Positions 3,898 through 30,712 of a stretch of DNA of 64,000 bases are shown here, piece by piece. The notes beneath the pieces were generated by a model. The model searched no databases, had not been told where the DNA came from, and saw only the letters and a list, made by a program, of their open reading frames with translations. The stretch is taken from positions 10,280 to 74,279 of the forward strand of contig JAJDXO010000024.1 in assembly GCA_022823235.1 (NCBI GenBank). The letters run 5' to 3'. Every line of letters begins with the position of its first letter. The first letter of the stretch is position 1. This DNA comes from Rhodospirillales bacterium (GTDB lineage Bacteria > Pseudomonadota > Alphaproteobacteria > Rhodospirillales > UBA2165). The translations under genes were made by a program, and so were the position numbers.

Positions 3898-3953
3898 CCG
3901 GAGGGAATCAGTAGCCGTTCGACGATATTATTTGTCATTGACGGGAGAGTGAT

Positions 3954-4277
3954 ATGGACGACTTGCCACGCGAAGTGCACCGGACGCTGAACACGGATCC
4001 CAGCGAGTACGAGCAGGCGCTCTCGAAGACCTTGTTCGGCATTCTATCCAAAAGCATTCACGATTTGCCCGGCATCGTCTCGGCCCTCAATGAGAGCGAG
4101 GTCCGGCCGCCCGAGGCCGATGCCTGGACCGAGGAAATCTTCGCCGCCGAGATGGAGCGTCTCGGCGCCTACCCCAATAGCGTCGGCGCGCCCCTCGGCG
4201 AACACCCGGCCGGCGTCGTCCCGCCGGGCACGTCAATTACCGACCGGCCCGGTCCGGGGAGTCACGGAGGAAACTGA
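3954..4277 (+). CDS. Small protein resembling the recombinase-like HTH proteins found upstream of Rieske oxygenases
   Basis: GGGAG RBS; 107 aa with YEQALSKTL, IHDLPGIVSALN and AWTEEIFAAEMERLG; stop lies 1 nt before the Rieske start. Family call is from recall. Confidence 0.6.
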   Translation: MDDLPREVHRTLNTDPSEYEQALSKTLFGILSKSIHDLPGIVSALNESEVRPPEADAWTEEIFAAEMERLGAYPNSVGAPLGEHPAGVVPPGTSITDRPGPGSHGGN

Positions 4278-4278
4278 C

Positions 4279-5337
4279 ATGAGCAAGCTGGAGCACAATG
4301 ACGAACGCATCGAGCGCCTGCTGTCGCTCGGCATTCGCAACCGCTGGTACTGTATCTGCCCGTCGGCGATGGTTCAGGACACGCCGGTGGCGATGACCCG
4401 CCTCGGCGAGAAGCTCGTCGCCTGGCGCGACGGAACCGGCAAGGTCAACCTGGTGGCGGACCGCTGTCCCCATCGCGCCGCCCCCCTGTCCTTCGGACGC
4501 ATCATCGAGGGCCGGCTCACCTGCCGGTATCACGGTGTCCAGGTCGGCGGGGACGGCGTCGTCCAGGCCGTGCCCGCTTTTCCCGACTGCAATCTGGTCG
4601 GACAGGAACTGGTAAGATCCTATCCGGTGATCGAGCATTTCCAGGGCATCTGGGCCTATTTCGGCGACGAGGCCCATCCCGAGCCGCCGCCGCTCGAATT
4701 CCCGGAGGAACTGACCTCCCCCGAATGGACCGGGTTCATCGTCTCAAACACGTGGCACTGCAATTTCCAGTACGCCCTCGACAACGTGGTCGACATTATG
4801 CACCCGCCGTACCTCCACGACGATACCTACACCCTCGCCTATGGCGACAAGTCCGACGTGGTGGAGGTCGATGAGACGGATAACGGTTTCGCGGTCCGCC
4901 GGAAGGAGGACCGGGAAAGCAACGTCGAGGTCATGCAGATCATGGATACCGGCTGCTTCTTCGATCGGGTCGGGGTGTTCATTCCGCCGGGCGGCGGTCC
5001 GGGCGGCGTGCTGCGGATCATCGCGACCGCGGTGCCCATCGACGAGAACCGCTGCCAGTTCAATGCGTGGCGGATGCGGAAGGTCGCGGGCTGGCAGGGC
5101 GCCATGTTCCGGTTCATGTTCAACATGATGTACGAGAAGATGACCTGGGAGGTGATCGAGCAGGACCGCGATATGCTTGAACGGATGCCGCCCTGGCCGG
5201 CGGAAGAGAATCTCTACCAGCACGATCTCGGGGTGGCCAAGTTCCGCAACTACATGCGCCACGAGGCCGAGGCGCAGGTTGCCGCCCTGGACGAACTTCA
5301 CGCCGGCCGGCAACCCGTCAGTCTGGCCGGAGAGTAG
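4279..5337 (+). CDS. Rieske non-heme iron oxygenase, alpha subunit (alpha3 / VanA-KshA type)
   Basis: Rieske motif CPH...CRYH; mononuclear Fe motif DIMHPPYLH and QD; GGAGG RBS before ATG 4279. Confidence 0.92.
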   Translation: MSKLEHNDERIERLLSLGIRNRWYCICPSAMVQDTPVAMTRLGEKLVAWRDGTGKVNLVADRCPHRAAPLSFGRIIEGRLTCRYHGVQVGGDGVVQAVPAFPDCNLVGQELVRSYPVIEHFQGIWAYFGDEAHPEPPPLEFPEELTSPEWTGFIVSNTWHCNFQYALDNVVDIMHPPYLHDDTYTLAYGDKSDVVEVDETDNGFAVRRKEDRESNVEVMQIMDTGCFFDRVGVFIPPGGGPGGVLRIIATAVPIDENRCQFNAWRMRKVAGWQGAMFRFMFNMMYEKMTWEVIEQDRDMLERMPPWPAEENLYQHDLGVAKFRNYMRHEAEAQVAALDELHAGRQPVSLAGE

Positions 5338-5543
5338 GCCGGCCCGGTCCCGGGGCGGCCTTGACCGACCGTGCCGAGAGCGTCGTTGCCAGCGGTCACA
5401 CGACCAATCGGATCGGGACCTTGCTTCCCTGGAACGTCGGGCTACGCTGACCCGTTGGAGGTTTATTCCGGTTGGGCGGCCTGCGTTTTGATCGTGCGGC
5501 GGCGTGGGTGACCGAAGGATCGCCAACCCGAAAGGACGGCATC

Positions 5544-7229
5544 ATGCGAGCGGTAATAGTCGGTGCGGGAATGGGCGGGCTGATGACGGCGTTGGCGCTG
5601 CGGCAGTCCGCCGCCTTCTCATCGATCGATGTCTACGAACAGACCAAAGAGCCGGCCACCGCCGGCGCCGGGTTGAACGTCCCGCCCAACGGGGCCCGGT
5701 TATGCCGCTGGCTGGGCGTCGACCTCGATGGCGGGGACCACAAGGGCCCCCACGGGGCGATCGACGGCGGCCGGGCGGCCATTCTGGAGTCGTCGCGGCA
5801 ATTCAACGAAGACGGAAGCATGTCGGAGAGGCCGTTCGATCATGTTACGGCCACGGGCGACGGCGCCGGTTTTCATCACATGCACAGGCTGGACCTGTTG
5901 ATGTGCCTCTACAAACGGGTGTTCGAGTTCGGTCCCGACAGCGGGAGACCCTGCCCGATTGCCGTCCACATGGACAGCAGATTGACGGAGTTGCAGCAGA
6001 CCGCGGACGGCGTGACGGCGATCTTTTCGAATGGCCTGGCCGCGACGGGCGATGTTCTCGTGGGTGCCGACGGGATCAATTCCGCCACATTGGAGTTGGC
6101 GTGGCCGAGCCCGCGCCCCCGACGCTGGACCGAGGTGATCTGCTTTCGCGGGCTCATTCCACGGGCCGACGTCGCCGCGCTTCGCAAGGCCGACGGCAGT
6201 CCCCTGGACTACAATCCCATCGACTCCTTCAGCATGGACCGCCATAAGACCGACACGAGTGCGGTGACCACCTACTGGGTGCGCAGGGGCGAGTTGCTGA
6301 ACGTCTGGATCGCCCACTACGAGCCCGAATCAACGGAGTTTGAGCAGGAGGAAGGCGACTGGTTTCCGGTCGGAAACGAGGAGATCGTTCGTCAGGTCGG
6401 CGAGGCGTTCGCTCAAGCCCCAAACCGGGACGACCTCGTCGCGCTGGCCGGGGCGATCGTTCGCCCGACCAAATGGGGCCTCTATGACCGGGACGCGCTC
6501 GATACCTGGGTGCAGGGCCGTGTCTGTCTGCTGGGCGACGCGGCGCATCCGATGCTTCCCACATTTGGTCAGGGTGCGGCGCAATCCTTCGAGGACGCCG
6601 CTGCGCTCTCCAGCGCTTTCGCCCTGCACGGCCGCGACGTGGCGACGGCGCTGTTGCACTACGAACGTGTCCGCCATTACCGCGCCACCCGCTTTCAACT
6701 GAGCTCCAAATTCGCCTTCGATCATTTGCGGGCCCGAGACACGGCGGCGCAGAAGGCGCTGCTCGAAGGGCTCGACGAGCGTGTAAGTCCTGCCTTTGCC
6801 CACGACAAACGCGGCGGTGAAAATGACGACTGGATCTATGCGTACGACGCCCGTGATATCGGTACCGAACTGCCTCCCAGGAAACTGGGGCCGTGGGACT
6901 TTCGCCGGGCCGCCAAGGCCGACCACGCCGCGATCACGCAGGAGCTTTGGACGCCGGCCAGCCCGGCCGATGGAACGCGCCGCGTGACGCGCGAAGAGGT
7001 CGCTCGGCACGACAACAAAGATGACTGTTGGGTCATCATCTCAGGGAAAGTTTACGACATTACCGAGTGGGCCCCCCATCACCCCGGCGGCGCGGGAATC
7101 GCCCGAATGTACGCCGGCAAGGATGCCACGGCGGAATTCGGCGATTACCACAGCGCCGAAGCCGTCGCGCATATGGCCAATTTCTGCATCGGCGACCTCC
7201 AGCCGACTGGCCGTGACCGGACGCGCTGA
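5544..7229 (+). CDS. Group A flavin monooxygenase (NahG/NicC-like) fused to a C-terminal cytochrome b5 domain
   Basis: GAGMGG, VLVGADG and GDAAHPMLPTFGQG motifs; C-terminus has DCWVIISGKVYDIT, HPGG and GKDATAEFGDYHS. Confidence 0.9.
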   Translation: MRAVIVGAGMGGLMTALALRQSAAFSSIDVYEQTKEPATAGAGLNVPPNGARLCRWLGVDLDGGDHKGPHGAIDGGRAAILESSRQFNEDGSMSERPFDHVTATGDGAGFHHMHRLDLLMCLYKRVFEFGPDSGRPCPIAVHMDSRLTELQQTADGVTAIFSNGLAATGDVLVGADGINSATLELAWPSPRPRRWTEVICFRGLIPRADVAALRKADGSPLDYNPIDSFSMDRHKTDTSAVTTYWVRRGELLNVWIAHYEPESTEFEQEEGDWFPVGNEEIVRQVGEAFAQAPNRDDLVALAGAIVRPTKWGLYDRDALDTWVQGRVCLLGDAAHPMLPTFGQGAAQSFEDAAALSSAFALHGRDVATALLHYERVRHYRATRFQLSSKFAFDHLRARDTAAQKALLEGLDERVSPAFAHDKRGGENDDWIYAYDARDIGTELPPRKLGPWDFRRAAKADHAAITQELWTPASPADGTRRVTREEVARHDNKDDCWVIISGKVYDITEWAPHHPGGAGIARMYAGKDATAEFGDYHSAEAVAHMANFCIGDLQPTGRDRTR

Positions 7230-7325
7230 CCGACGGCACATCGAGGTCCGGTATCGGGGCGGCAAAGAAAATGATCGCGCGATCGGCAAGACTGAAATCA
7301 TCACCGGCCAACCGAGGAGCGCCAT

Positions 7326-7342
7326 CAAATTGATTCAATTTG
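7326..7342. repeat. Perfect palindrome containing a GANTC site, inside a short TAGAGC-ended intergenic element
   Basis: caaattga-t-tcaatttg; the minus strand reads TAGAGCAGTTTCC from 7358, resembling alphaproteobacterial intergenic repeats. Confidence 0.35.
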
Positions 7343-7403
7343 GCCGGAAACTGCTCTAGGCTCCATTCGAGAAGTATTTGAGCGGCGGAACACGGCGCAT
7401 CAA

Positions 7404-7622
7404 ATGGCGGCGATGCAGAGTTCGGAAAATCCACGCGGCGACCGAGAGCATGACCGCGTCCAGACGGGGGGCTCCCTGCACGACAATTTCGTTCGCCAGG
7501 TGCAGGAGCTTCTCGACAAGAGCGATATATCCGAGGAAGACCGCCGGATCATCCTTGCGAACATGTCCTGCCCCTGCTGCGGCGGCAGCGCCGCATCGGT
7601 GAACATCAAACTCGGCGACTAA
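7404..7622 (+). CDS. Small hypothetical protein with a CPCCG motif
   Basis: 72 aa, protein-like composition, fills the gap before the convergent hydantoinase B stop. Confidence 0.55.
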   Translation: MAAMQSSENPRGDREHDRVQTGGSLHDNFVRQVQELLDKSDISEEDRRIILANMSCPCCGGSAASVNIKLGD

Positions 7623-7625
7623 GGG

Positions 7626-9377
7626 TTAGCCGCGCCGTTTGCCGCGTAACGCTTGGGTCGCCTCGGCGTCCAATGCCAGTGTTTCCGGATCGACGACGAC
7701 GCCGTAATTCCGTTCCGCGGAGTCGATGGAGACATAACCCTGCCGGACATCCTCGGCGACGATATCGGCCGGGCGGTCCAGCGGGTCGCCGAAACCGCCG
7801 CCGCCGCCGGACCTGAGCCGGAACGCCTCACCCTCCTTCAGCTGGGCGGTCAATACCTTGGCGTTGGGGAAATCCTCTTTCCATTTTCCATCCAGCTCGA
7901 GCGCAACCGTGTTGCCGGTGGCATCGCCGCCCCCGTCCAATCCCCAGGGGCGGCAGTTCATCCGTTCGATCTGCGTGTTGACGACGATATCGCTCCGGGC
8001 GCGAACGACGCGCTCGATGCCAAGCCCGCCCCGCTGCCGGCCGGCCCCGCCCGAGTCCCGGATCAGGCAGTTGTTTTCGATCAGCACCGGCGACTTGGTC
8101 TCGGCCTGCTCGATGGGGGCGTTGTGGGTGTCGCCGTCGTTGATGCACACCACCGCATTGGCGCCGTCCTCGGTGAGCTTGGCGCCCCAGCCGCCGCCCT
8201 GGGGGCCGAAGTTGCCGATGAAGAACTCCCGGGTGCGCGGATTTATGCCGTGGAACATCACCACCACCAGGTCGGCGTGATGCCCGGCGATCACCCTGTC
8301 CGGAATGGCGGGCTCCAACGCCTTGAAGACCGTGTCGACGACGGTCATCGGAAACGTCATCCACCAGCGCATGGGCGCCGGCCGGACGGCGCTCACCACC
8401 TTGCCCATGGGGACGATGGTCTTGAGGTTCCGGAAGGCGCCGTCGTTGATCGGATAGTCGGTCGGCGAGGCGATGCATTTGAAGGCAACCTGGGTGCAGG
8501 CGTGGCCGGTGGTCACCCCGGAATTGTAGAACCCGCGCACCTGTTCGGAGACGTCGGAGAGGTCGATGGTCATCTCGTCTCCCTCGACGACGATTTTCAC
8601 CCGGATGGGAATCCGGCGGCCGACATCGATCCCGTCGTCATCCATGAAGGATTCGGCCTCGTAGACGCCGTCCGGTATGGAGAGGGTGCGGCGCCGGGAC
8701 GCCTCCTCGGCGTGATCCATGATGGCGGCGATGCTGTCGCGGACGGCGTCAAACCCATAGCGCCGCACGAGTTCCAGGAAGCGGCGCTCGCCGGTCTTGA
8801 CGGCGGTTACCTGGGCCCGGAGGTCGCCCATGGCCCGGGAGGGAATGCGCACGTTCATGCGAATGATGTCTTCCAGGTCCGTGTTGACCGTGCCCTCGTT
8901 CTGATATTTGAGGATCGGCACCTGCAGGCCTTCGGAATAGATGTCCGTGGTCATCCCGCCGAGCGTGCCGCCGATGTCGATCCAGTGGGCCATGCAGCAG
9001 GCGAACCCCACCAGCCGGCCGTCGTCGAAGACCGGCAAGGTAAAGGTCATGTGGTTGAGATGACTGCCGGTGAGGTAGGCATCGTTGGTGACGTAGATGT
9101 CGCCCGGCTTGATGCCGTCCTCTCCGAAATGCCTGATCTTGGCTTTGACCGTCTCCGCCATCCCCCGGATGAACATGGGCAGGCCGATGCCGATGGAGAC
9201 GGTCTCCCCCTCGGGCGTGAAGATGCCGACGGTGAAATCCAGCGCCTCGTAGATGATGGTGTTGTAGGCGGTCCGCATGAGGTTGTTCTTCATTTCCTCG
9301 GTCACCGCCAGGACGCCGTTGCGGACGATCTCGGTGGTCACCGGATCGGTCCCCGGATATTTTTGCCAGTCGGTCAT
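7626..9377 (-). CDS. Hydantoinase B / 5-oxoprolinase family subunit (copy 1)
   Basis: DPVTTEIVRN, AYNTIIYEALDF, HLNH, HWIDIGG and DSGGAGRQRGG; 4-nt overlap with the A subunit. Confidence 0.92.
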   Translation of the reverse strand: MTDWQKYPGTDPVTTEIVRNGVLAVTEEMKNNLMRTAYNTIIYEALDFTVGIFTPEGETVSIGIGLPMFIRGMAETVKAKIRHFGEDGIKPGDIYVTNDAYLTGSHLNHMTFTLPVFDDGRLVGFACCMAHWIDIGGTLGGMTTDIYSEGLQVPILKYQNEGTVNTDLEDIIRMNVRIPSRAMGDLRAQVTAVKTGERRFLELVRRYGFDAVRDSIAAIMDHAEEASRRRTLSIPDGVYEAESFMDDDGIDVGRRIPIRVKIVVEGDEMTIDLSDVSEQVRGFYNSGVTTGHACTQVAFKCIASPTDYPINDGAFRNLKTIVPMGKVVSAVRPAPMRWWMTFPMTVVDTVFKALEPAIPDRVIAGHHADLVVVMFHGINPRTREFFIGNFGPQGGGWGAKLTEDGANAVVCINDGDTHNAPIEQAETKSPVLIENNCLIRDSGGAGRQRGGLGIERVVRARSDIVVNTQIERMNCRPWGLDGGGDATGNTVALELDGKWKEDFPNAKVLTAQLKEGEAFRLRSGGGGGFGDPLDRPADIVAEDVRQGYVSIDSAERNYGVVVDPETLALDAEATQALRGKRRG

Positions 9378-11482
9378 GAGGAATACCCCGCCACGGTGAT
9401 GATCAGGTTGAGATAGTCGTCCACCTCCAGGGTGTCGCCGGGAAACAGGACCGTGGTCGAGGCATGTTCCTCGACAACGGCGGGCCCCTCGATCCTGTGG
9501 CCCGGTTTCAAACGGGTGCGGTCGAAGGACGGCGTCTCCCGGTAGCCCGCGTTCCTGTCGAAGCAGATTTGGCGGCTGCCGGCCGCGGCATCGGAGGCGC
9601 CGCCGGCGCCCTCGTTCGGATAGGCCCGGAGCTCGGGAACCGGCATCTTCCCGACGATCGAGCTTCTCAGACTGACGATCTCCCCGGGCTCGGCCGGCGC
9701 GTTGGTGCCGTAGCGCTCGAGGTGAACCTTGTCGAATTCCCGTTTGATGCCGTCCCGGTCCTCGTCGGCAAACAGCTTATCATCAAGCGGAACCGTGACC
9801 GGGTGCTCCTGACCGACATAACGCATGTCCGCGGCGCGCGAGATCACGATTCCCTCCGGCTCGATGGAGGTCCTGCGGATCGCCTCCCGGCCCTGTTCGG
9901 CCATTTCGCCGTAGGTTTGCTCCATCACGCCGAATTCCATATCCGCCAGCCGGCCCGGCGCGGTGCGGACGTAGTCGTATCGAAGATCCGAGAACAGCAT
10001 GCCGAAGGCCGAGAAGTGCCCGGGCGACAGCGGGACGATGATGGTCTTCATGCCGATCTCGCGGGCGACCTGGGTGGCGTGCAAGGGCCCGGCGCCGCCA
10101 TAGGCCACCATGGAGAAGCTCGCCGCGTCCAGCCCCCGCTCGGTGGAGACGCCCTTGACCGCATAGGACATGGCCGTCGACGCAATCCTGAGAATACCTT
10201 CGGCGGCCTCCGTAACATCAAGGCCGAGCGGCTCGGCAACCTGCGTCGCAATGGCCCTTTCGGCGGCTTCCCGGTCCAGTTTCATCTCGCCGCCCAGGAA
10301 GCGGTCCGCGTCCAAACGGCCCAGCACAAGATTGGCGTCCGTCACCGTCGGCCGGTTTCCGCCGAGGCCGTAACAGGCCGGGCCGGGGTCCGCGCCGGCG
10401 CTTTCCGGCCCCACGTGAAGGGCGCCGGACTCGTCCAAAAGGGCGAGGCTGCCGCCGCCGGTGCCGACCTCGAAGATATCCATCATGGCGATCTGAACGG
10501 GCAATCCCTGCTCGTAACCGCCTATCAGCGTGTCGCCGATGGTCAGCACCTCGCCGTTATGGATCACGCCGGACTTGGCGGTGGTGCCCCCCATATCGAA
10601 GGAAATCGCGTCCTCAAGGCCGAGAATATGGCAAAGGGCGCGCGTTCCGATGACCCCCGCCGCCGGGCCCGACTCCAACATCCGGACGCATTCGGAACGG
10701 GCCTGCCCGGCTTCAAAAAGGCCGCCGGTGGACTGGACCACGAGGAAGGAGCCATCGAAGCCGCTTGCCCTGATGTGGCTGTCGATCCCGTCCACATAGC
10801 CGCGCACCGTGGGTCCGATGTAGGCATTGGCCGCCACGGTGGAGCAGCGTTCATACTCCCGGTATTCCTGGGACAGTTCGTGGGAGACCGTGACGAAGAC
10901 CCCCGGGAGTTCCTCTTCCAATATTTCGCGCGCCCGGATTTCGTGGACGGGATTTCGATAGGCGTGCAGAAACAGGACGGCGATGCTTTCGATGCCGTCG
11001 AGTCCCTTGGCGAGCCGCCGAAGCGCCGTCTCGTTCAGGGGCGTGCGGATCTCGCCCTCGGCGTACATGCGCTCCGGCACTTCGAAACGTTTGGCCCGCT
11101 CGATCAACGGCACGTGTTTCTTGAAATAAAGGTTATAGGCGTCCGGCCGGTTGACCCTGCCGATTTCATAGATGTCGCGGAACCCCTCGGTGATGACCAA
11201 CGCCGTATCGGCGCCGGTGCGCTCCAGGATCGTGTTGATGGCGATGGTGGAGCCGTGGAGGAACAGCGAGGCATCGGCGTATTCGAGGCCCGCCTTGGCG
11301 ACGCCGCCGCTGATGCCGTCGACGAGGGCGGCTGGGGTCGACAAGGTTTTTCCCCAGGAAAGCCTGCCCGTTCCTTCGTCGAACGCGGCGACATCGGTAA
11401 ACGTGCCGCCTATGTCTGTAGCAATTCGTACTCTGCGGCCTGATACGGTATTTTTTATATATTTATCAATATACTGTGGCAT
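9374..11482 (-). CDS. Hydantoinase A / 5-oxoprolinase family ATP-binding subunit (copy 1)
   Basis: DIGGTFTD, HGSTIAINT, ESGPAAG and DMGGTTAK. Start placed at ATG 11482 by comparison with copy 2. Confidence 0.92.
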   Translation of the reverse strand: MPQYIDKYIKNTVSGRRVRIATDIGGTFTDVAAFDEGTGRLSWGKTLSTPAALVDGISGGVAKAGLEYADASLFLHGSTIAINTILERTGADTALVITEGFRDIYEIGRVNRPDAYNLYFKKHVPLIERAKRFEVPERMYAEGEIRTPLNETALRRLAKGLDGIESIAVLFLHAYRNPVHEIRAREILEEELPGVFVTVSHELSQEYREYERCSTVAANAYIGPTVRGYVDGIDSHIRASGFDGSFLVVQSTGGLFEAGQARSECVRMLESGPAAGVIGTRALCHILGLEDAISFDMGGTTAKSGVIHNGEVLTIGDTLIGGYEQGLPVQIAMMDIFEVGTGGGSLALLDESGALHVGPESAGADPGPACYGLGGNRPTVTDANLVLGRLDADRFLGGEMKLDREAAERAIATQVAEPLGLDVTEAAEGILRIASTAMSYAVKGVSTERGLDAASFSMVAYGGAGPLHATQVAREIGMKTIIVPLSPGHFSAFGMLFSDLRYDYVRTAPGRLADMEFGVMEQTYGEMAEQGREAIRRTSIEPEGIVISRAADMRYVGQEHPVTVPLDDKLFADEDRDGIKREFDKVHLERYGTNAPAEPGEIVSLRSSIVGKMPVPELRAYPNEGAGGASDAAAGSRQICFDRNAGYRETPSFDRTRLKPGHRIEGPAVVEEHASTTVLFPGDTLEVDDYLNLIITVAGYSS

Positions 11483-11508
11483 TTCTCGGCCCGATAGATA
11501 ACTGGCAA

Positions 11509-11684
11509 AATCGGGCCAGCGTAAGCATGCTGAAAGAGGATTCACTCCAACGCCGGGTTTTGAATCGCCGACAGGCTGCCGGCGGGACCGCCGAGGAACG
11601 AACCCGCATCGAGCGCTCTCGACGCCGGCCACGACACTCCCTAGCATGGTAACAGCGAAATTGCGGAGCGTCACCGCGACCCGA
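11509..11684 (-). ncRNA. Conserved 176-bp non-coding leader, copy 1 (candidate promoter plus structured 5' UTR)
   Basis: 165/176 identical, ungapped, to 63609-63784; ends 26 nt upstream of the hydantoinase A start. The repeat is certain; the RNA function is inferred. Confidence 0.55.
11646..11674 (-). promoter_or_regulatory. Putative sigma70 promoter, copy 1
   Basis: -35 GTGACG (11674-11669), 17-nt spacer ending in TGt (extended -10), then -10 TACCAT (11651-11646). Confidence 0.5.
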
Positions 11685-11812
11685 AGCGGAGGAAGACGTG
11701 CGCGGTGCTACGCAGCCAGATTGCAGGCCTGAAAAGTTGGGCGGATACCCGCGTATATGACCCGGTCCCGTATACGTAGAAGACATAGATCCCAAAGGAC
11801 TTTGAAAGCTGA

Positions 11813-12191
11813 TCACGTAATCAGAGTTTGGCGCCGGCGGCGGGCTACCGCCACCCGTCCACGCTCAACGGCGAACAGAGTTTTTTTGAAGCTCAGTCCC
11901 TCGCGCTTGAGAAACCGCCGGCGACGTCCCCCCATCCGGCCCGGCGAAACGCTCCCCATTGCCCGGTAGCGCTGTGACCACTTAACCACGCTCGAAACCG
12001 AAACACCAAAACGTGACGCGACTGCCCGGCAGCTCTCGCCCGCCGCGAACGCCAAAACAACGCGCTCTCGAAGATCATTCGAATAAGGTGGGGTCATGGG
12101 TGCTGGCCTTCTTGCCCAGCATCCATCTTGAATCACAAATCAAACCCTGAGGGAAACCCATATCGATTCCGAATAAACGTGAAACGCTCTA
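11813..12191 (-). mobile_element. IS630-family remnant: left end plus an internally deleted transposase orfA
   Basis: ORF 12097-11813 reads YSNDLRERVV...SVVKWSQRYRAMGSVSPGRMGG joined directly to FLKREGLSFKKT; A7C slippery motif near 11880; left end begins TAGAGCG at a CTAG site. Confidence 0.8.
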
Positions 12192-13136
12192 GATAGCCTC
12201 CCGGCCATAGTATAAATTGACGACATGCTCGGCATCGGCAAATAGAAGCCAGCGTTCGATGACGACACCTGTGGCGCTGGCAATGACGGCGGCGCCCGCC
12301 GCGAACAAGCCGAACATTCCCGGAAGCACAAGAATTAGGGCCAGCAGAAGGGCCGGAGTTATAAAACAAAGGGTAAGCACGTGCCGCCTCAGCCGTTCAG
12401 AGTGTCTTCGCGCAATGGCGTATCCCATTTCCTTGTTGAGGTAATTGGGAGCTGTGTGGGGCGGGTCGAGAGGCCTGACATTGCCGAACTGTTTCAGGCC
12501 GGTGGCCGACTCGACTGTGTGCTCGCGCGATCTTGTATTGAGGAATGCCCAATACTTTAATTTCAATGCCAGCGCGGCAAGCAGCGCCGCAATGGCGATC
12601 ATGACGGCCCACGCCTGCCAAATACCGAAAGCTAACATTAGAAAGTTGAGGAGAACCGCACCGGTCGCCAGAGCGAGGAATAAAAATACCGGCGGCACCA
12701 GACCATTGTGCCACTGCGGGATGGTCTTCAAGGATGCATAGATCATCGCCGTGCTATAGACCGTCGCGACAGAGAAGAACGCCGTCAGCCATGCCATAAG
12801 GTTCCACACCGAAGACGTCGTCTCAAAATATATCCACCCGATCGCGAGCACGCCTGACGGCACATAAGTGAAAACGGCGAGCACCCCCTCCCGGGAGAGC
12901 CACGAGGACCGCCATTGAGAGAAGGCGCGCCAGGAGCGCTCCGGATGACCTAGGTGAAAAGTTGAGGAAAGGAGGCCGCCGGAGATCAGCCCGAGGGCAA
13001 TCGCAAAGCCCGCAAGTCCAAACCAGCGCTCGGCGGGAAGCAGACCAAGCGCCCCCAAAATCGCCAGCAAAAACAACAGTCCGTATCCGGCCCCTGAGGA
13101 GGTGGTGAAAAAAATGACGGAATATGCCGGGTGCAT
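12189..13136 (-). CDS. soeC: Sulfite:quinone oxidoreductase membrane anchor (DmsC/NrfD family)
   Basis: MHPAYSVIFFT, HLGHPERSWRAFSQWRSSWLSRE and ERWLLF; context xsc-pta-soeAB. Confidence 0.85.
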   Translation of the reverse strand: MHPAYSVIFFTTSSGAGYGLLFLLAILGALGLLPAERWFGLAGFAIALGLISGGLLSSTFHLGHPERSWRAFSQWRSSWLSREGVLAVFTYVPSGVLAIGWIYFETTSSVWNLMAWLTAFFSVATVYSTAMIYASLKTIPQWHNGLVPPVFLFLALATGAVLLNFLMLAFGIWQAWAVMIAIAALLAALALKLKYWAFLNTRSREHTVESATGLKQFGNVRPLDPPHTAPNYLNKEMGYAIARRHSERLRRHVLTLCFITPALLLALILVLPGMFGLFAAGAAVIASATGVVIERWLLFADAEHVVNLYYGREAI

Positions 13137-13150
13137 TGTCGGCGCGTCCC

Positions 13151-13909
13151 TCAATCGGACAACATTCGGTCGGCCCACCCGAAAAACTTCTCGACGGCCG
13201 TAGGAGCGTGAACGGCATCAATTTGCGCCGGCCTCTCTCCGGCGGGTTTTGCATGGGAGCGGTCAACCTCCCTCGTTCGCGGCGGCAGATATTTGTTGAC
13301 CGGTCTGTACCCAAGCTCGGGCAGCAGGTCGTATCCTTCGCGTTCCTTGACGACTTTTGAAACGATGCTGTCCGGATCGCCCAAATCACCGAAATGCCTC
13401 GCGCCGGTTGGGCAGGCCATTACGCAGGCCGGCACTCGATCAGCTTCCGGCAGGTTGTCGTTATATATGCGATCCACGCAGAGGGTGCACTTTTTCATGA
13501 CGCCGTGGCTCTGATCGTATTCCCGGGCGCCATAGGGGCACGCCCACGAACAGAGTTTACAGCCGATGCAGGTGTCGGGATTGACCAGCACGATTCCATC
13601 TTCGGACCGCTTGTACGAGGCCCCTGTCGGACAGACCGTTACGCAGTCCGGTTCCTCACAGTGCAGACAGGAGCGTGGAAAATGGACTGTCCGGCCGCCG
13701 GTTCCGTCACCGGCTTCAAAGCTGTGAATCCGGTTCAACCATGGACCGTGGGGGTCGTTGCCATAGGCGTCGATATCGGAAAGCGGCGCCGAGTATCCGC
13801 CGGTATTCCATTCCTTGCAGCTTACGGCACAGGCGTGACACCCGACGCAAATATCGAGATCTATGACCAGCCCCAACTTCTTGCCGGTTGCCGGCGGAAG
13901 CGTTGTCAT
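13151..13909 (-). CDS. soeB: Sulfite dehydrogenase 4Fe-4S subunit
   Basis: Four Cys clusters: CVGCHACAVSC, CLHCEEPDCVTVC, CIGCKLCSWAC and KCTLC...C. Confidence 0.88.
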   Translation of the reverse strand: MTTLPPATGKKLGLVIDLDICVGCHACAVSCKEWNTGGYSAPLSDIDAYGNDPHGPWLNRIHSFEAGDGTGGRTVHFPRSCLHCEEPDCVTVCPTGASYKRSEDGIVLVNPDTCIGCKLCSWACPYGAREYDQSHGVMKKCTLCVDRIYNDNLPEADRVPACVMACPTGARHFGDLGDPDSIVSKVVKEREGYDLLPELGYRPVNKYLPPRTREVDRSHAKPAGERPAQIDAVHAPTAVEKFFGWADRMLSD

Positions 13910-16782
13910 GTCGTTGCGTCCCCAAACTCGGCGCCATATCGCAGATTGGCCGGGGCCGGCGGCACGACGGCCGGCCGGCCGATCACTTCGAATTGGGGAA
14001 GCGAGACCCCGTCGACCGTGTCCACCGCTTTTGCGATGCGGACGCGGAGGTCATACCAGGCGGCCTGCCCGGTAACCGGATCGCTGTTCGAGTAGCGGTA
14101 GCTGTCACCCCGTTTAGGAAGCAATTCGGAAATGAGGTGGTTTAAAAGGAACCCTTGCCTTGACTCGGCCGCTTCAGGGTCGAGGTTCCAGGAACCCGCC
14201 CGTTTACCGATGGCATTCCACGTCCAGACAGTGTCCGGGTTTACGCCATCCATCAGTTTCACCTGCGTCCTGATGCGGCCAATATGGCTGCTTACCCACA
14301 CCCAGTCTTCATCGGCGATACCCAGTTCGGCCGCGCGTCCACGATGAATATAGAGCCGATTGTGGCCATGAATCTGCCGGAGCCAGGCATTTTGCGAGCC
14401 CCACGAATGGTACATCGCCATCGGGCGCTGGGTGATGGCGTGCATGGGATATTCATCCTGGGTCACCATGGCTTCTTCAAAAGGCGGATACCAGAACGGC
14501 AGGGGGTCAAAATAGGTGCGTATCCGCTCGCGGTGCTCCGCCGGCGGCGTGACATTGCCGTGCCCCCGGGCAGCCAAGCGGAACTTTTGCATGGGCTCTA
14601 GGTAAATTTGAAAAAATACCGGCTTGTCCGTAATCCGGTAGCCGACTTTTACGGCCCAATCGATGTACGCTTTGTTCACGTGTCTGTAGTAGCGCTGGTC
14701 TTCGGGAATTTCGTGGACGGCGAAACAACCATTCTCGATATATTTCTCGATTTGGTTCGGGTTCGGCGTCCCGACTCCCCACTCGTCCTGAAATTCACCC
14801 CGCCAAGCGGACAGCGGCCCGATGCCCGGCTTGCGCTCATGATTGGCGATGTAGTCAGGATATCCGCCCGGGTAGAGGGGCGAGCCGTCATCCTTGGCAA
14901 AACCCGGCAAGCCCAATCGTGCGCCGAGATCGATGAGAACTTCCTGAAACGGCCGGACATTCCTGTCGGGCTGGACCACCGGCCGACGGATCGAGTCCGC
15001 GGCCGCATTCGGCTCGGAAATCGGCCGGTCCAACATCGAGATACAGTCCCATCGCTCGAGATAAGTGGTATCCGGCAGGATGAGGTCGGCGTAGGGAACC
15101 ATCTCGGAGTAATAGGCGTCCGAGTAGATGATTTTCGGGATGACATACTCACCGGTCCGGTCATCCTTGCCGGTGAGACTCTTGATGGTATCCGGAACAT
15201 TCATGGACGAGTTCCAGCTCATATTCGCCATGTACATGAACAACACGTCTATCGGATATGGATCCTGTTTGAACGCATTGTTGATGACCATATGCATGAG
15301 CCCGTGGGACGCGAATGGCGCATCCCAACTGAAGGCCTTGTCGATGCGCTGCGGGTTTCCGTCAGCGTCGATCAGCAGGTCTTCCGGCTCCGTGGGAAAT
15401 CCGAGATGCGGTCCCCCAAGGGGTTCAGATGGGCGGATATCTCCCGGCTTACCGGACGGTTTCAAGAGCGGCGGCGTTTGTTTTGGGTAGGGCGGTTTGA
15501 ACCGGAAACCGCCCGGGCAATCGATACTGCCCAGGAGGATTTGGAGTATGTGGATCATCCGGCAGGTATGGAAGCCGTTTGAATGCGCCGAAATGCCCCG
15601 CATGGCGTGCATGGATACCGGACGCCCAACGATCTTGTCGTGTTTTTCGCCCCGCCAATCGGTCCAGGAAACATCCAGGGTTATTTCCTGCTGGAATGCA
15701 ACCTGGGCCAGTTCGGCTGCAATCCGTCGTATTGTCTCCGCCGGAATATTCGTCTCCTCCGCGACCGCACCGGGCGAATACCTGTCCGACAAGAATCTTT
15801 TGACGAGGAGTTGAAACGCGGGTACCGCGACTTGTCCGGTCGACAGTGTGAATTCCCCGGAGAGGGCCGGCACCACATGTTTATCAATGGCCCCGGCGAG
15901 CCGCTCGTTTTGTCTGTCGAAGCACAGCGGCTGCCCATCTCCGTCGCGTGCGAACAAACCGTCTTCAGGCGACCCTTCGTCCTGGATTATGAGCCATCCG
16001 GCGTTTGTGTAGCGGATCAGAAAATCCAGATCGACGTTTTCGGTCCGGAGGAGTTCGTGAATGAGCGCTCCAACCAATAGCCCATCCGTGCCCGGCCGGA
16101 TTCCGAGCCATTCGTCGGCAATGGCGGAGTATCCCGTCCTAACGGGATTGACCGATACGAACTTCGTTCCACGCCCCTTCAGTTTGCCAAGGGCTGCCTT
16201 GAGCGGATTGGAACCGTGCTCCTCAGCCACGCCAAACATGAGAAAGTATTTGGTGTGTTCCCAATCCGGCTCCCCAAACTCCCAAAATGAGCCGCCCAAC
16301 GTGTACAGTCCGGCCGTTGCCATGTTGACGGAACAGAATCCGCCGTGAGCGGCAAAATTCGGCGTCCCGAATTGAATGGCCCAAAAACCGGTCAGTGACT
16401 GGCTTTGGTCCCGTCCAGTAAAAAAAGCGAGTCGTCTAGGGTCATTCTCCCTGACCTTGCCAAGCCACTTCGTCGCCAATTCGAGGGCTTCATCCCATGA
16501 TATTTCCTTGAACTCCCCGCTGCCCCGATCCCCTGTTCTGAGCATCGGTGCCGTAAGCCTTGCGGGAGAGTATTGCTGCATGATCCCGGCCGACCCTTTC
16601 CCGCACAGGATGCCTTTGTTGACGGGGTGGTCAGGGTTCCCTTCGATGTAACGGATTTTTCCGTTCTTAAGGTGGACCTTGATCCCGCAACGGCAGGCAC
16701 ACATGTAACAAGTGGTGGTTTTCACTTCGTCGGAGACGAGAGGAGAGGTGTCTATCGTCGGTTGGCTATTGGCGGCGGTCAT
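13906..16782 (-). CDS. soeA: Sulfite dehydrogenase molybdopterin subunit (cytoplasmic, no Tat signal)
   Basis: CYMCACRCG...C, GFCSVNM and LPDTTYLE; lies downstream of pta and xsc. Confidence 0.88.
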   Translation of the reverse strand: MTAANSQPTIDTSPLVSDEVKTTTCYMCACRCGIKVHLKNGKIRYIEGNPDHPVNKGILCGKGSAGIMQQYSPARLTAPMLRTGDRGSGEFKEISWDEALELATKWLGKVRENDPRRLAFFTGRDQSQSLTGFWAIQFGTPNFAAHGGFCSVNMATAGLYTLGGSFWEFGEPDWEHTKYFLMFGVAEEHGSNPLKAALGKLKGRGTKFVSVNPVRTGYSAIADEWLGIRPGTDGLLVGALIHELLRTENVDLDFLIRYTNAGWLIIQDEGSPEDGLFARDGDGQPLCFDRQNERLAGAIDKHVVPALSGEFTLSTGQVAVPAFQLLVKRFLSDRYSPGAVAEETNIPAETIRRIAAELAQVAFQQEITLDVSWTDWRGEKHDKIVGRPVSMHAMRGISAHSNGFHTCRMIHILQILLGSIDCPGGFRFKPPYPKQTPPLLKPSGKPGDIRPSEPLGGPHLGFPTEPEDLLIDADGNPQRIDKAFSWDAPFASHGLMHMVINNAFKQDPYPIDVLFMYMANMSWNSSMNVPDTIKSLTGKDDRTGEYVIPKIIYSDAYYSEMVPYADLILPDTTYLERWDCISMLDRPISEPNAAADSIRRPVVQPDRNVRPFQEVLIDLGARLGLPGFAKDDGSPLYPGGYPDYIANHERKPGIGPLSAWRGEFQDEWGVGTPNPNQIEKYIENGCFAVHEIPEDQRYYRHVNKAYIDWAVKVGYRITDKPVFFQIYLEPMQKFRLAARGHGNVTPPAEHRERIRTYFDPLPFWYPPFEEAMVTQDEYPMHAITQRPMAMYHSWGSQNAWLRQIHGHNRLYIHRGRAAELGIADEDWVWVSSHIGRIRTQVKLMDGVNPDTVWTWNAIGKRAGSWNLDPEAAESRQGFLLNHLISELLPKRGDSYRYSNSDPVTGQAAWYDLRVRIAKAVDTVDGVSLPQFEVIGRPAVVPPAPANLRYGAEFGDATT

Positions 16783-16794
16783 TGTTATTCCCGG

Positions 16795-17826
16795 CTAGGC
16801 TGGTGCGGCTGAGTTGATTTTTTTTTGGTCCGTGACCTGGGCTTGAACGCTCGTTACCGCAATCATCCGGTAAATGTCCTCCGCACTGCAGCCGCGGGAT
16901 AAGTCGTTCGCGGGCTTCGCCAGTCCTTGTAGTATCGGTCCAATCGCCTTTGCCTTGCCGATCCGCTCGGCGATCTTGTAGCCGATGTTCCCGGAATTTA
17001 GGTCTGGGAAGATCATGACGTTTGCGTTGCCGGCGACAGCGGATTCCGGGGCTTTTAGGTTTCCAATCTCGGGCACGAACGAAGCGTCGAACTGAATGCC
17101 ACCCTCGACGGGAATGTCAGGCCGAAGCTCCTTGAGCCGCCTCGCCGCATTGTCGACCTTGTCGACGAGTTGGTGACCCGCGCTTTGACGTGTCGAGAAC
17201 GACAACATGGCCAGTTTGGGGTCCAGGTTCAGGAGCGTATTGGCGCTGTCTGCTGTCGCTGAAGCAATTTGAACAAGCTGCTCTTCGTCCGGGTCCACGA
17301 TCAATGCGCAATCCGCGAAGAGTATTGACCCCTTGAAATCGTGGAATTCTTCTTCCAACAGCATGATGAAAAAGCTGGACACCAGGGAGTAACGATTGTC
17401 GATTCCAATTACCTGAAAGGCTGTTCGGACCACGTCCGCGGTTGTGCGTGTGGCCCCGCCAAGGGATCCTGCCGCATCACCTTCCCGGACCATGAGATCG
17501 GCAAATATCAAAGGGTCCGAAACCGCCGACTCGGCTGACTTTTCATCGACGCCTTTGTGTTTTCTCAATTGGTAGAAGGTGTCCGCATAACCGTGTCTAG
17601 CCGGTGACTTGTCCGGTTCAATCACATTTATGGTGGAAACGTCACCGCCGAACTCTTTGAGGGTAGGCCGAATGTTGTCCGGGTCTCCGAGAATTGTAAC
17701 AACGGCGAGGCCATCGCGGGCGGCACGGAGGCCGCCTTCGATCACACGCTCGTCTCCTCCCTCCGCCAGAACGATGTGTTTAGGATTGGAACGGGCCCGG
17801 CTGATTATGGAATCGAACTGGCTCAT
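16795..17826 (-). CDS. pta: Phosphate acetyltransferase
   Basis: IVLAEGGDERV, LAMLSFST, IQFDAS, FPDLNSGNIGYK and GPILQG. Confidence 0.92.
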   Translation of the reverse strand: MSQFDSIISRARSNPKHIVLAEGGDERVIEGGLRAARDGLAVVTILGDPDNIRPTLKEFGGDVSTINVIEPDKSPARHGYADTFYQLRKHKGVDEKSAESAVSDPLIFADLMVREGDAAGSLGGATRTTADVVRTAFQVIGIDNRYSLVSSFFIMLLEEEFHDFKGSILFADCALIVDPDEEQLVQIASATADSANTLLNLDPKLAMLSFSTRQSAGHQLVDKVDNAARRLKELRPDIPVEGGIQFDASFVPEIGNLKAPESAVAGNANVMIFPDLNSGNIGYKIAERIGKAKAIGPILQGLAKPANDLSRGCSAEDIYRMIAVTSVQAQVTDQKKINSAAPA

Positions 17827-17900
17827 TCGACTGGCCGGAATGCCTCTATCGGGAGTCCGGGGGACCGGAGGGACACCACCTGGGACGTCCCTTCCCGCCC

Positions 17901-19691
17901 TCAGCCGGAATGTTCCCCAACCTGCTGGGGGCGCATATCGCCGGCATCTATTCCCGCAACGGGAACCGGCGCCTTCATTGCGTCCCGGCGGAACGGCTCG
18001 CCAAGCTCCTGGTTGAGTACAACCTCGACGAAGGTCGTGACACCGCTTGCCTGGGCCTCGCAGCCTTCCCTTATCGCGGCGGTAAGCTCGTCTTGCGTTC
18101 TGGCCTGAACACCTCTCAGTCCGCAACCTTCGGCGATTTTCGCATAGCTGAGATTGGGGTCCAGTTCCGTGCCGACAAAATTATTGTCGTACCATAGGAT
18201 GGTGTTTCTTTTTTCGGCGCCCCACTGATAATTGCGGAAGATGACCATCGTGATGGCCGGCCAGTCTTCACGGCCGCAAGATGTCATTTCGTTCATCGAA
18301 ATGCCGAACGCACCGTCTCCGGCAAAGCCGACGACCGGCGTATCCGGGCAGCCGATTTTCGCGCCGAGGATTGACGGGAAGCCATAACCGCACGGGCCAA
18401 ACAGCCCCGGAGCAAGGTACTTCCGGCCTTGCTCAAATGTCGGGTAGGCATTGCCAATAGCGCAATTGTTCCCGATGTCGGTTGAAATGATCGCATCCCC
18501 GGGCAATCCGGCTTGAATTGCTCGCCAAGCCTTGCGGGGTGACATCAAATCCGCATCCCGTTCGCGTGCTTCTTCGTTCCAGACAGTACCCGGGTCGTCC
18601 TCTTCGTGATCCAGACTGCTCAATGTCTGCAGCCAAGCTGATTTTGTCTGGTGGATCAGCGCCTTTCGGTCTTCTCGTCCTTTGTCTCCCGCCGAGTCAG
18701 GCAGTCGGTCAAGAATCTGCCGGGCAACCAGCTTGGCGTCCCCGCTGATTCCGACATCTACCTTCTTCGTCAAGCCAATACGATCCGGATTGATGTCGAC
18801 TTGGATGATAGCGGCGTCCTGTGGCCAGTAGTCGATACCATAGCCGGGAAGCGTGGAAAACGGATTCAGGCGCGTCCCGAGCGCGAGGACGACATCGGCC
18901 TTTGAAATGAGTTCCATGGCCGCCTTGGATCCGTTGTATCCCAGCGGCCCTACGGCCAGAGGGTGGCTGCCAGGAAAACTATCGTTGTGTTGATAGCCGC
19001 TGCAGACGGGAGCATCGAGCCGTTCGGCGAGCGCCCGGCACTCCGGAATGGCTTCTCCGATAACAACACCCGCCCCAGACAAAATTACGGGAAACTCCGA
19101 GGCGGCCAGGAGATCTGCCGCTTTGGCGATCGATTCGGCGCCGCCACCGGACCTCTCAAGGCGCACAATTTGAGGCATCTCAATATCGATGACCTGGGTC
19201 CAAAAATCCCTCGGTACATTTATTTGCGCGGGCGCAGACCCCCGCCACGCTTTCTCGATGACCCGGTTCAAAACCTCGGCCATTCTGGACGGGTCGCGGA
19301 CTTCTTCCTGGTAGCAGACCATGTCGCGGAAGAGAGCCATCTGCTCCACTTCCTGGAAACCGCCTTGCCCCATGGTCTTGTTCGCGGCCTGCGGCGTTAC
19401 CAGCAGCATCGGCGTATGGTTCCAATAAGCTGTCTTGATCGGCGTCACGAAGTTTGTGATTCCGGGACCGTTCTGCGCGATGGCCATGGCCATCTTTCCG
19501 GTGGATCGGGTATATCCGTCGGCGATGAATCCGGCGTTGGCTTCGTGGGCACAATCCCAAAATTTGATCCCGGCGGCGGGGAATAAATCCGAAATAGGCA
19601 TCATGGCGGAACCGATAATGCCGAAGGCATGTTCGATGCCGTGGTTTTGAAGCACTTTTACGAATGCTTCTTCGGTCGTCATCTTAGTCAT
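17901..19691 (-). CDS. xsc: Sulfoacetaldehyde acetyltransferase (ThDP-dependent)
   Basis: MTTEEAFVKVL, QNGPGITN, GDGAFGISMNE and NYQWGAEKRN are typical Xsc signatures. Confidence 0.95.
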   Translation of the reverse strand: MTKMTTEEAFVKVLQNHGIEHAFGIIGSAMMPISDLFPAAGIKFWDCAHEANAGFIADGYTRSTGKMAMAIAQNGPGITNFVTPIKTAYWNHTPMLLVTPQAANKTMGQGGFQEVEQMALFRDMVCYQEEVRDPSRMAEVLNRVIEKAWRGSAPAQINVPRDFWTQVIDIEMPQIVRLERSGGGAESIAKAADLLAASEFPVILSGAGVVIGEAIPECRALAERLDAPVCSGYQHNDSFPGSHPLAVGPLGYNGSKAAMELISKADVVLALGTRLNPFSTLPGYGIDYWPQDAAIIQVDINPDRIGLTKKVDVGISGDAKLVARQILDRLPDSAGDKGREDRKALIHQTKSAWLQTLSSLDHEEDDPGTVWNEEARERDADLMSPRKAWRAIQAGLPGDAIISTDIGNNCAIGNAYPTFEQGRKYLAPGLFGPCGYGFPSILGAKIGCPDTPVVGFAGDGAFGISMNEMTSCGREDWPAITMVIFRNYQWGAEKRNTILWYDNNFVGTELDPNLSYAKIAEGCGLRGVQARTQDELTAAIREGCEAQASGVTTFVEVVLNQELGEPFRRDAMKAPVPVAGIDAGDMRPQQVGEHSG

Positions 19692-19750
19692 GATTCTGGT
19701 CTCTCTGGTTGTTCCTCGATGTGTTGTACAGATTCGCCATCGGTACAAAT

Positions 19751-21765: not shown

Positions 21766-21769
21766 CAGA

Positions 21770-23200: not shown

Positions 23201-23421
23201 CACCAATCCTATTATTCATTTAATGGGACAAAACGTCCCACTTTATTATGTTCTAGGGCAGAAAAGTCAAGCTAAATTGGGGAAAAATCGTTGAAGTATG
23301 GTGTTTTTCGTCGTTTCGCCGAGATTTTTGAAAGTCCGGACTTCTTGCGCTTAAAATTTCAAACAAATATCAATTGAATGGCAAAAAACCATCTTTCCGG
23401 CAGCGGCAATGGTGACACCGC

Positions 23422-23465
23422 TCCCGGAACTCCGGCGCCCAAAATCGAGGCGGGGAGTTCCGGGA
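23422..23465 (-). terminator. Stem-loop downstream of tctC
   Basis: 12-bp perfect inverted repeat tcccggaactcc / ggagttccggga. Confidence 0.5.
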
Positions 23466-23480
23466 TCGGATATTGCCGGT

Positions 23481-24437: not shown

Positions 24438-24486
24438 TTCTAGCCTCCTGAAATCGAAAGAATGATGATGAGATTCGGAGCCGTTC

Positions 24487-26489: not shown

Positions 26490-26712
26490 ACCGGGCCTCC
26501 GGACACTGCGGAGCGGACTTTTTTCATTAATAAATGGGTCGCAGCGTCCTATTAATTTACAAATCGTTTTCCATATGTCAATTAATTTTTAATAAACGGG
26601 CAATTTTGGTATTAAAAATGGTCACGAGGTCAAAATTAAGACTCAAGGTGTTGGACGAGCGCCCGATAATTGATTATTCAAACCTGGGGCGACTGGGCGG
26701 AGGTGGTGATAA

Positions 26713-30010: not shown

Positions 30011-30019
30011 CGCCGCCCC

Positions 30020-30538: not shown

Positions 30539-30686
30539 CGCCGTTCCCCCCGTGTTTCCCCCGTGTTGCGCCGCGCCGGCCCCGGCCGGCCGCTACAGAA
30601 TGCCGATCATGCCGGTTGCCGGTGCGGATGTCCATTCCCCAAGCCGCCGCGAACCCGCCGGCCGGACCCGATAAAGGGAACGGGAA

Positions 30687-30712
30687 ACGGGCTCCGAAAA
30701 ACCGAAGCCCGT
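30687..30712 (-). terminator. Stem-loop after the SBP gene
   Basis: Minus-strand acgggcttcgg-tttt-tcggagcccgt forms an 11-bp stem with two G-U pairs. Confidence 0.45.

Follow-up and report, generated by a model that had tools for sequence, protein, structure and literature searches.

Two hydantoinase A genes (hyuA) in a 64,000-nt stretch of a Rhodospirillales genome (GenBank assembly GCA_022823235.1, contig JAJDXO010000024.1, positions 10,280 to 74,279 of the forward strand; this whole stretch is called the window in the following) are each preceded by nearly the same 176-nt block of DNA. The two blocks, copy A and copy B, make up the outer two-thirds of a unit of about 280 nt, a portable 5' module of hydantoinase A genes, and the pair is probably not a riboswitch kept by selection. 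The explanation that we prefer, with a probability of roughly 0.6, is that genomic islands insert site-specifically in the 5' end of hyuA and bring along a replacement leader together with N-terminal codons.

The Repeat Pair and Its Genes

Copies A and B align without gaps at an offset of 52100 with 11 mismatches in 176 positions (93.75% identity; blastn E = 2.65e-74), which is far beyond chance, and no third copy is present within the 64-kb window. Identity falls to the background of 25–50% within 20 nt beyond either edge. The distance from the repeat to the ATG is 26 nt at one hyuA gene and 27 nt at the other. HyuA-A and HyuA-B share 46% identity and HyuB-A and HyuB-B 40%, and conservation of the repeat thus far exceeds that of the genes; judged by their sequences, the two hyuA/hyuB pairs are old paralogues. 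An initial annotation of the stretch had already described the near-identical pair with its offset and mismatch count, its position 26–27 nt before a hydantoinase A ATG, the more diverged neighbouring genes and an abrupt loss of similarity on the upstream side. All of this was reproduced, and the loss of similarity was found on both sides.

Copy B begins directly after the stop codon of a gene with an adenylate/guanylate-cyclase domain, and copy A is common to two further loci (L011 and L014) at 73–75% identity. The repeat is regarded as non-coding because its reading frame is open in copy A only; it is closed in copy B, and the overlapping open reading frames have no Pfam matches, so that a coding role was rejected. 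Independent sponge-metagenome contigs cover the copy-A region (X2 and X5) and a second joint at 38.9 kb (X3). Word matches to the window fall in sponge metagenomes, and the closest proteins come from metagenome-assembled genomes (MAGs) of Rhodospirillales/Rhodospirillaceae.

Architecture of the Module

The module runs from a lineage-specific outer part with a sharp 5' edge through a near-invariant core of about 30 nt, TTGGAGTGAATCCNCTTACAGTATGCTTACG, and a spacer to the start codon and the first 18–27 codons of the gene. Its 3' end is GGCGGCAC(C), which codes for the GGT within the phosphate-binding motif DxGGT. At this end, the inner part of module A terminates with GGCGGCAC at 11410-11403, forming an attR-like joint, and that of module B with GGCGGCACC at 63509-63501.

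Copies differ mainly in what stands 5' of the core. In the delta type it is GACAGAG and a GC-hairpin, 35 nt in all, and in the alpha type, which comprises the window copies A (WA) and B (WB) and those of L011 and L014, it is a 127-nt part of the 176-nt repeat. Loci L008 and L039 carry a different sequence of ~340 nt, and L038 a unique one. From the core to GGCGGCACC, a profile of 18 distinct delta-type copies aligns with the alpha type over ~150 nt with almost no length change. In the universal unit thus delimited, the core is followed by a variable short hairpin region and an AT-rich stretch, and then come the start codon and 18–27 codons up to GGT. The core lies on the sense strand in every copy, and its distance to the GGT codons is fixed at 143 ± 2 nt.

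The core of copy A holds a GCTTAC-type direct repeat, GCTTAC-N5-GCTTAC, with a period of 11 nt. An IHF-like match to WATCAANNNNTTR is found at a fixed position (~118, overlapping the first ATG) in 10 of the 18 delta-type units. Together with the strict spacing between core and joint, these motifs may point either to protein binding at the arms of an attachment site or to expression signals. At the 5' edge of some delta-type units (alignment positions 1–10), GACAGAG(C) is present in two to three tandem repeats, as in L012, L023, L028 and L032.

An Insertion in the Window

Far upstream of hyuA-A lies the remnant of a native hyuA 5' end, which breaks at an attL-like joint (Table 1), and the sequence beyond the break is unrelated to hyuA. 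The corresponding sequence is uninterrupted in locus L003 and split in the window: positions 137-159 of L003 match 38944-38922, and positions 152-169 match 11410-11393. The two matches overlap by 8 nt, which are GGCGGCAC. Because a contiguous sequence is split in this way with an 8-nt overlap, the window holds both ends of one insertion. Another variant of the joint, at the same base as the remnant, was found in metagenome X4.

The island between the two GGCGGCAC repeats has a GC content of 0.53–0.59 vs 0.62–0.65 outside, and a GC content at third codon positions (GC3) of 0.62–0.70 vs 0.78–0.88; an internal block at 28.5–33.8 kb departs from this low composition. Module A, including copy A, forms the last 274 bp of the island and adjoins the body of hyuA-A.

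Orphan Copies and a Common Breakpoint

Species-representative genomes and metagenomes were scanned with the core pattern GAATCCNCTTNCAGNATGCTTACG. The genomes gave matches at 11 places, in MAGs labelled Deltaproteobacteria, Thermodesulfobacteriota, Candidatus Binatia, Rhodospirillales and Alphaproteobacteria, and the metagenomes gave 20 further true matches and one AT-rich chance match (L022). In total, MAGs and metagenome contigs hold 25 distinct module copies. Apart from L001/L008 and L039, every copy was found by exact core match, which misses diverged relatives; the core was confirmed independently in L001/L008 and L039, which were found through their proteins, with one mismatch in L039. 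Copy number is low, with two copies in the 64-kb window, one or two per MAG and a depth of at most ~3.5x in the metagenome. A distant-mode search of a plasmid collection with the 217-nt leader, a scan of viral contigs with the core pattern and a search with the short N-terminal tag as protein query gave no match.

An intact hyuA follows 14 of the 25 distinct copies, and the HyuA proteins downstream of copies from the core scan are 35–42% identical to the window HyuA and 36–61% identical among themselves. The other 11 copies stop exactly after GGCGGCACC and continue into unrelated DNA. These orphans, which have no hyuA in the examined flank (L007, L009, L014, L016, L019, L021, L023, L028, L032, L035 and L036), resemble one another at 88–93% identity over a stretch restricted to 178–181 nt. 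The initial annotation had tied the element to hydantoinase A genes, and this tie was confirmed. The core stands before very divergent hyuA genes in four phyla; 11 of the copies lie beside unrelated DNA.

One breakpoint, GGCGGCAC(C), is common to the 11 distinct orphans, the window remnant and the X4 variant, with differing DNA beyond it. L023 and L036 differ in their units and share the DNA beyond the joint. In L019 and L028, the upstream flank is 99% alike, the unit is common and the DNA after the joint differs, which is a polymorphism at the strain level. In locus L028, a full module is followed by small genes over 2.5 kb, by a second, 65-nt copy of the module end and then by an intact hyuA. 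The ends of the orphans, GACAGAG... and ...GGCGGCACC, are not mutual inverted repeats, and a flanking duplication is absent from the compared flanks. Misassembly of metagenomes was considered as a source of the orphans and rejected, because several of them recur in independent assemblies or lie in complete MAG chromosomes, and because the repeat is absent from the joined DNA.

The surroundings of the orphans are accessory or defence-like and include a NACHT NTPase, an MrfA-type helicase, a NucS-like nuclease, DUF2513, DUF5677 and a lipase. The orphans are not confined to obvious islands, because the alpha-type orphan of L014 (oriented positions 3532-3806) adjoins the housekeeping genes dinB/aspS; on its other side lies a divergent TctC/TctA transporter. 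Tandem P4-type integrases (Phage_integrase with Arm-DNA-bind_3) are encoded at 2.8 kb (L009) and 5.5 kb (L025) from the joint; in L007 there is a weak N-terminal integrase match. A transfer RNA or transfer-messenger RNA gene as a target was found neither in the window nor in 10 loci.

Some further observations concern single loci. In L028 (oriented positions 2800-10495) there are two tandem hyuAB operons, of which only the first has a module-type start and the second begins with a short native MEYIIGVDIGGT. The two integrases of each pair (L009 5607-8000 and L025, oriented, 10754-13124) are 57% identical to each other and 94% identical between the loci, with differing DNA around them, and a 70–130-nt repeat lies beside them and elsewhere in both loci.

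Reassortment and Absence from Close Orthologues

Comparison with close orthologues points to exchange of module parts. Homology of the window to the 92–94% orthologue loci begins at the 5' edge of the core, at 11557 for L008 and at 63651 for L039, and homology to L038 begins only ~25 nt before GGCGGCAC. In a second genome, the paralogue loci L008 and L039 have a common block of ~385 nt at 98–100% identity. The 5' part of this block is unrelated to the 176 nt of the window, but the block stops where the window repeat does, just 3' of the core. Two types of inner part can be distinguished, one in WB, L008, L011 and L014 and the other in WA and L039, so that the types are swapped between the paralogue loci of the two genomes. 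Three strains with ~93% identical hyuAB-A have three different modules and different upstream DNA. Because inner types are swapped and outer parts replaced, the 5' module does not descend with its gene; judged from these alignments, there seems to be a second recombination point beside the core. Locus L039 (1-10000 and 13600-20200) places the hyuAB-B orthologue amid insertion sequence (IS) elements (DDE_Tnp_1, DDE_3 and IS110); it has two identical copies of a group II intron (Rfam RF02003, 1018-1160 and 8728-8870) and a hyuB cut to 494 aa.

More distant orthologues lack the module. Locus L001, which is the same as L008 and carries the 92–93% orthologue of hyuA-A, keeps only the last ~45 nt of the repeat, and its spacer and N-terminal tag resemble those of copy B. 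No trace of the element or the tag was seen in the hyuA-A orthologue loci L002 (82%) and L003-L006 (77%). For hyuA-B, the tag is present only in the 94% orthologue, proteins of at most 79% identity are shorter by 16–19 residues, and in L040, the locus of the 76% orthologue, an ordinary leader lies beside a LysR gene. Over all loci of 76–82% orthologues in which it was looked for (L002-L006, L040 and L041), the element was absent. A synteny test of the TRAP transporter that lies upstream of the remnant, made against the locus of the 77% orthologue, was uninformative because the two are not orthologous.

Cargo of the Island and Features of the Window

The coordinates of the features are collected in Table 1. 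According to its protein family matches, the island carries a catabolic set for sulfoacetaldehyde/sulfoacetate, which lies within 12189-27492. The DMSO-reductase-family complex is possibly a SoeABC-like sulfite dehydrogenase, and TctABC and an IclR regulator are also encoded. A block at 28553-33760 has a host-like GC3 of 0.81–0.86, which makes the island a mosaic, and encodes TRAP transporter subunits and a GMC-type oxidoreductase.

Table 1. Positions of the module parts, the hydantoinase genes, the island and its main genes in the window
Feature	Position	Strand	Remark
Copy A of the 176-nt repeat	11509-11684	-	Outer (5') two-thirds of module A
Core, copy A (TTGGAGTGAATCCTCTTTCAGCATGCTTACG)	11520-11550	-	
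Inner part of module A, type Y	11403-11508	-	Spacer, ATG 11482-11480, tag codons MPQYIDKYIKNTVSGRRVRIATDIGGT
hyuA-A (702 aa; hydantoinase/oxoprolinase family)	9374-11482	-	First 27 codons are module A
hyuB-A	7626-9377	-	
Copy B of the 176-nt repeat	63609-63784	-	Outer part of module B
Core, copy B	63620-63650	-	
Inner part of module B, type X	63501-63608	-	Spacer, ATG 63581-63579, tag codons MKQDIEKHTKKSVSGGGIRLAADIGGT
hyuA-B (695 aa)	61494-63581	-	First 27 codons are module B
hyuB-B	59734-61497	-	
Native hyuA 5' remnant (TTG start, LTANHEQNGGLRLAADIGGT)	38922-38980	-	Breaks after GGCGGCAC (38929-38922), attL-like joint
Island between the two GGCGGCAC repeats	11411-38921	.	27,511 bp
IS630-family transposase fragment (107 aa)	11813-12136	-	N-terminal HTH only; directly upstream of module A
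Three-subunit DMSO-reductase-family complex	12189-16782		Family-level matches only
Pta, phosphate acetyltransferase	16795-18126		Above NCBIfam cutoff
Xsc, sulfoacetaldehyde acetyltransferase	17901-19754		Above NCBIfam cutoff
SauS, acylating sulfoacetaldehyde dehydrogenase	21770-23206		Above NCBIfam cutoff

RNA Structure, Promoters and Other Candidates

At the gathering score, Rfam gave no match in the window and eight related loci, and the initial annotation had recognised no TPP, cobalamin, SAM, glycine or guanidine riboswitch consensus; in E-value mode the sole match was DUF3800-VI, with 15.3 bits vs a cutoff of 35 and E = 2.7. Single-sequence folds are unremarkable (z = -1.2 and -1.7). For the 18 delta-type units, RNAalifold returned a covariation term of 0.03 and no compensatory pair, and an all-pairs scan of these units found no stacked covarying columns. 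The check for covariation that the initial annotation had proposed thus came out negative for these 18 copies. Two candidate pairings were rejected: a long-range helix of the delta type, joining the 5' flank of the core with the region after the first ATG, was no better than shuffles or slid controls, and a general pairing of the core with upstream sequence reaches p ~0.02–0.03 in the two window copies only.

For the four alpha-type copies, a structure of six helices was obtained, with 96.6% of the positions in the helices paired and four pairs changed on both sides. Helices 3–5 are 100% paired and have 11 variable pairs, of which two are compensatory and the rest wobble. The covariation score was reached by 6 of 500 shuffles, and the alifold energy is -60.6 kcal/mol for the sense strand vs -41.2 kcal/mol for the antisense strand. 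This result comes from four related sequences, with the structure derived from the same sequences, and the conservation is suggestive. The folded part is missing from the other subtypes. An RNA role of the alpha-type outer part within the module would be compatible with insertion and is conceivable, if rather doubtful.

Scans for promoters and terminators gave no consensus that passed. The promoter spacing proposed in the initial annotation is present on the minus strand, as GTGACG-N17-TAC(C/G)AT; it agrees with the consensus at only 8 of 12 positions and does not pass the sigma-70 scan. A sigma-54 reading of the core was rejected, as the spacing from GG to GC is 9 and not 10. The sequencing runs X5, X13, X21 and X23 behave as DNA, and the leader lies outside the coverage of metatranscriptome X22. 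Group II introns, Tn7-like elements, integron attI/attC sites and IS91/ISCR elements were rejected by reasoning only, since the sequences behind the joints have no terminal motif in common, such as GTGCG, TGT or TTRRRY, and the unit has no linked transposase.

Proposed Mechanism and Its Alternatives

Under the preferred explanation, genomic islands would recombine site-specifically in the 5' end of hyuA, precisely at GGCGGCAC(C). Directly observed are the joints, the island, the orphans, their distribution and the absence of the unit from close orthologues; we infer that a site-specific recombinase makes the joints. The incoming DNA would bear the module at its gene-proximal end, so that the interrupted hyuA gains a new leader, start codon and N-terminal tag, and the old hyuA 5' end would stay at the far end of the island; the module would in this way supply expression signals. 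Repeated insertions at one spot would leave orphan modules between islands, and recombination of modules with one another next to the core would yield mosaic modules. An excised circle would bear the joint module A | ATCCATTAAGG. Both hyuA paralogues of the genome would recently have received, or exchanged, one module type, which would be why the window copies are 94% alike. Selection on a leader since the gene duplication would not be the cause of this identity.

Several findings weigh against this explanation. No recombinase gene was found within the window island; neither a circular form nor, in four sponge metagenomes, a true empty site of a near-identical strain was observed. Upstream of copy B, the presumed island extends past the window, so that its far end is not included. 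The integrases of L009 and L025 do not adjoin the joint, beyond which the two loci differ in their DNA. A simple attP/attB picture explains neither the sharp 5' edge of the orphans nor the second breakpoint just 3' of the core. The invariance of the core is partly built in, because copies were found by exact core match. Finally, the sense-strand helices kept in the four alpha-type copies hint at a role at the RNA level that insertion does not need.

One alternative is a structured cis-regulatory leader RNA of hyuAB, a riboswitch or attenuator sensing a substrate or product of the lactam/hydantoin hydrolases. The core is always on the sense strand at its fixed distance of 143 ± 2 nt from the GGT codons and stands before divergent hyuA genes, and the fully paired alpha-type helices 3–5, with their sense-specific energy and a score reached by 6 of 500 shuffles, also fit such an RNA, which would be new, as it matches no known family. 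However, the single-sequence folds are not unusual, the 18 delta-type copies lack covariation, their long-range helix fails its controls, and the core does not generally pair with upstream sequence. The support comes from four related sequences from which the structure itself was derived, and the delta type lacks the folding outer part, in place of which L008/L039 and L038 have unrelated sequence. Moreover, 11 of 25 copies have no hyuA behind them, and close orthologues do without the element. The inference of a leader under selection, made in the initial annotation, does not agree with orthologues of 76–82% that have neither element nor tag, or with orthologues of 92–94% that have another outer part; the alternatives which it had named, recent DNA exchange or a dispersed repeat, are closer to the data. 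As the main cause, a leader RNA of this kind is considered quite unlikely.

Gene conversion or ectopic homologous recombination, acting within each genome between the regions that lie upstream of the paralogues and with no mobile element, would account for the genome-specific blocks common to paralogue loci (176 nt with 94% identity in the window, ~385 nt with 98–100% in L008/L039), for their stop at one point 3' of the core and for the swapped inner types. It leaves unexplained how orphans are joined to non-hyuA DNA at one exact base, why a native 5' remnant is found with a 27.5-kb low-GC insert, and why near-identical cores are present in four phyla. As the sole process it appears unlikely; it may act on top of insertion. 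Very unlikely is a non-autonomous dispersed repeat of ~180–280 nt (MITE- or PATE-like) that moves on its own and has a hyuA-like start by chance. The orphans do look like discrete blocks of 178–181 nt with unrelated DNA on either side, and GACAGAG at the 5' edge is sometimes in tandem, but the copy number is low (two in the window, one or two per MAG and at most ~3.5x depth), the ends are not inverted repeats, the compared sequences have no flanking duplication, and plasmids and viral contigs gave no match. More than half of the copies are in-frame fusions to hyuA at one codon.

Relation to Known Systems

Integration in the 5' end of a gene with built-in repair is already known. Hochhut and Waldor reportedly described in 1999 that SXT supplies a new promoter and N-terminal codons and that prfC stays functional; module A likewise appears to supply hyuA-A with a new start. 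SXT/R391 elements integrate in the 5' extremity of prfC, where tandem arrays and hybrids form (PMC5812530). Insertion at hyuA would resemble them in being site-specific in the 5' end of a protein gene and in giving arrays and hybrids at one site. It differs in its target, the DxGGT codons, in its hosts, which are sponge symbionts of at least four phyla, and in the cargo, which varies widely and is often small, with 2.5 kb in L028. Unlike in SXT/R391, the window island showed no genes for an integrase, conjugation or excision, and the module forms an arm of 180–390 nt with a 30-nt near-invariant core.

Islands and prophages of the P4/lambda type carry the end of their target gene, such as the 3' ends of transfer RNA genes, or icd in the case of phage 21 and e14. 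Shared with them are the 8-nt identical core at both joints, the replacement copy of the displaced gene part, the tyrosine integrases with arm-binding domain at two related loci and the IHF-like consensus in 10 of 18 delta-type units. In contrast, it is the 5' end of hyuA including expression signals that is replaced and not a 3' end, the linkage to an integrase is putative, and the sequence after the joint is not conserved between the loci with 94% identical integrases. With riboswitches and leaders of Rfam, the module has in common the sense-strand position in front of an operon, a conserved core amid variable hairpins and the constant spacing to the start codon. It differs from them in having no Rfam match, in the absence of covariation in the delta type, with the alpha type suggestive on four copies, and in a distribution that tracks insertion events and not gene phylogeny.

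In the literature, no paper was found that links hydantoinase genes to an integration site. New are the hyuA target, the spread across phyla of sponge symbionts, the conserved core and the orphan arrays. A wider proposal, which we put forward only tentatively, is that an undescribed family of integrating DNA is present in at least four phyla of sponge symbionts, uses the codons of the catalytic motif DxGGT as attachment site and rewires any hyuAB operon that it enters with a portable expression module of 30-nt invariant core, start codon and N-terminal tag, the alpha-type outer part of which would be a new structured leader RNA.

Biological Meaning

For the search of regulatory motifs, a caution follows: where a non-coding block is much more conserved than the genes beside it, it can be the sign of a recombination module and not of a riboswitch. 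The appeal of the repeat as a riboswitch candidate is mostly lost, and its reading as a recombination hot spot is moderately interesting. If site-specific insertion in hyuA holds, it would be the second clear case, after SXT at prfC, of 5'-end insertion with built-in repair.

Genes of the hydantoinase/oxoprolinase family are abundant in sponge symbionts and have been linked to the use of creatinine, N-methylhydantoin or lactams. If the proposed mechanism is true, these genes would be a common landing pad for horizontally moving DNA in unrelated sponge symbionts. Cargo would arrive there, a sulfoacetaldehyde/sulfoacetate pathway in the window and defence-like genes elsewhere, and the promoter-proximal part and the N-terminus of the target would be replaced at the same time. 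This would give a testable route for gene flow in the sponge microbiome and for the rewiring of a nitrogen-scavenging pathway.

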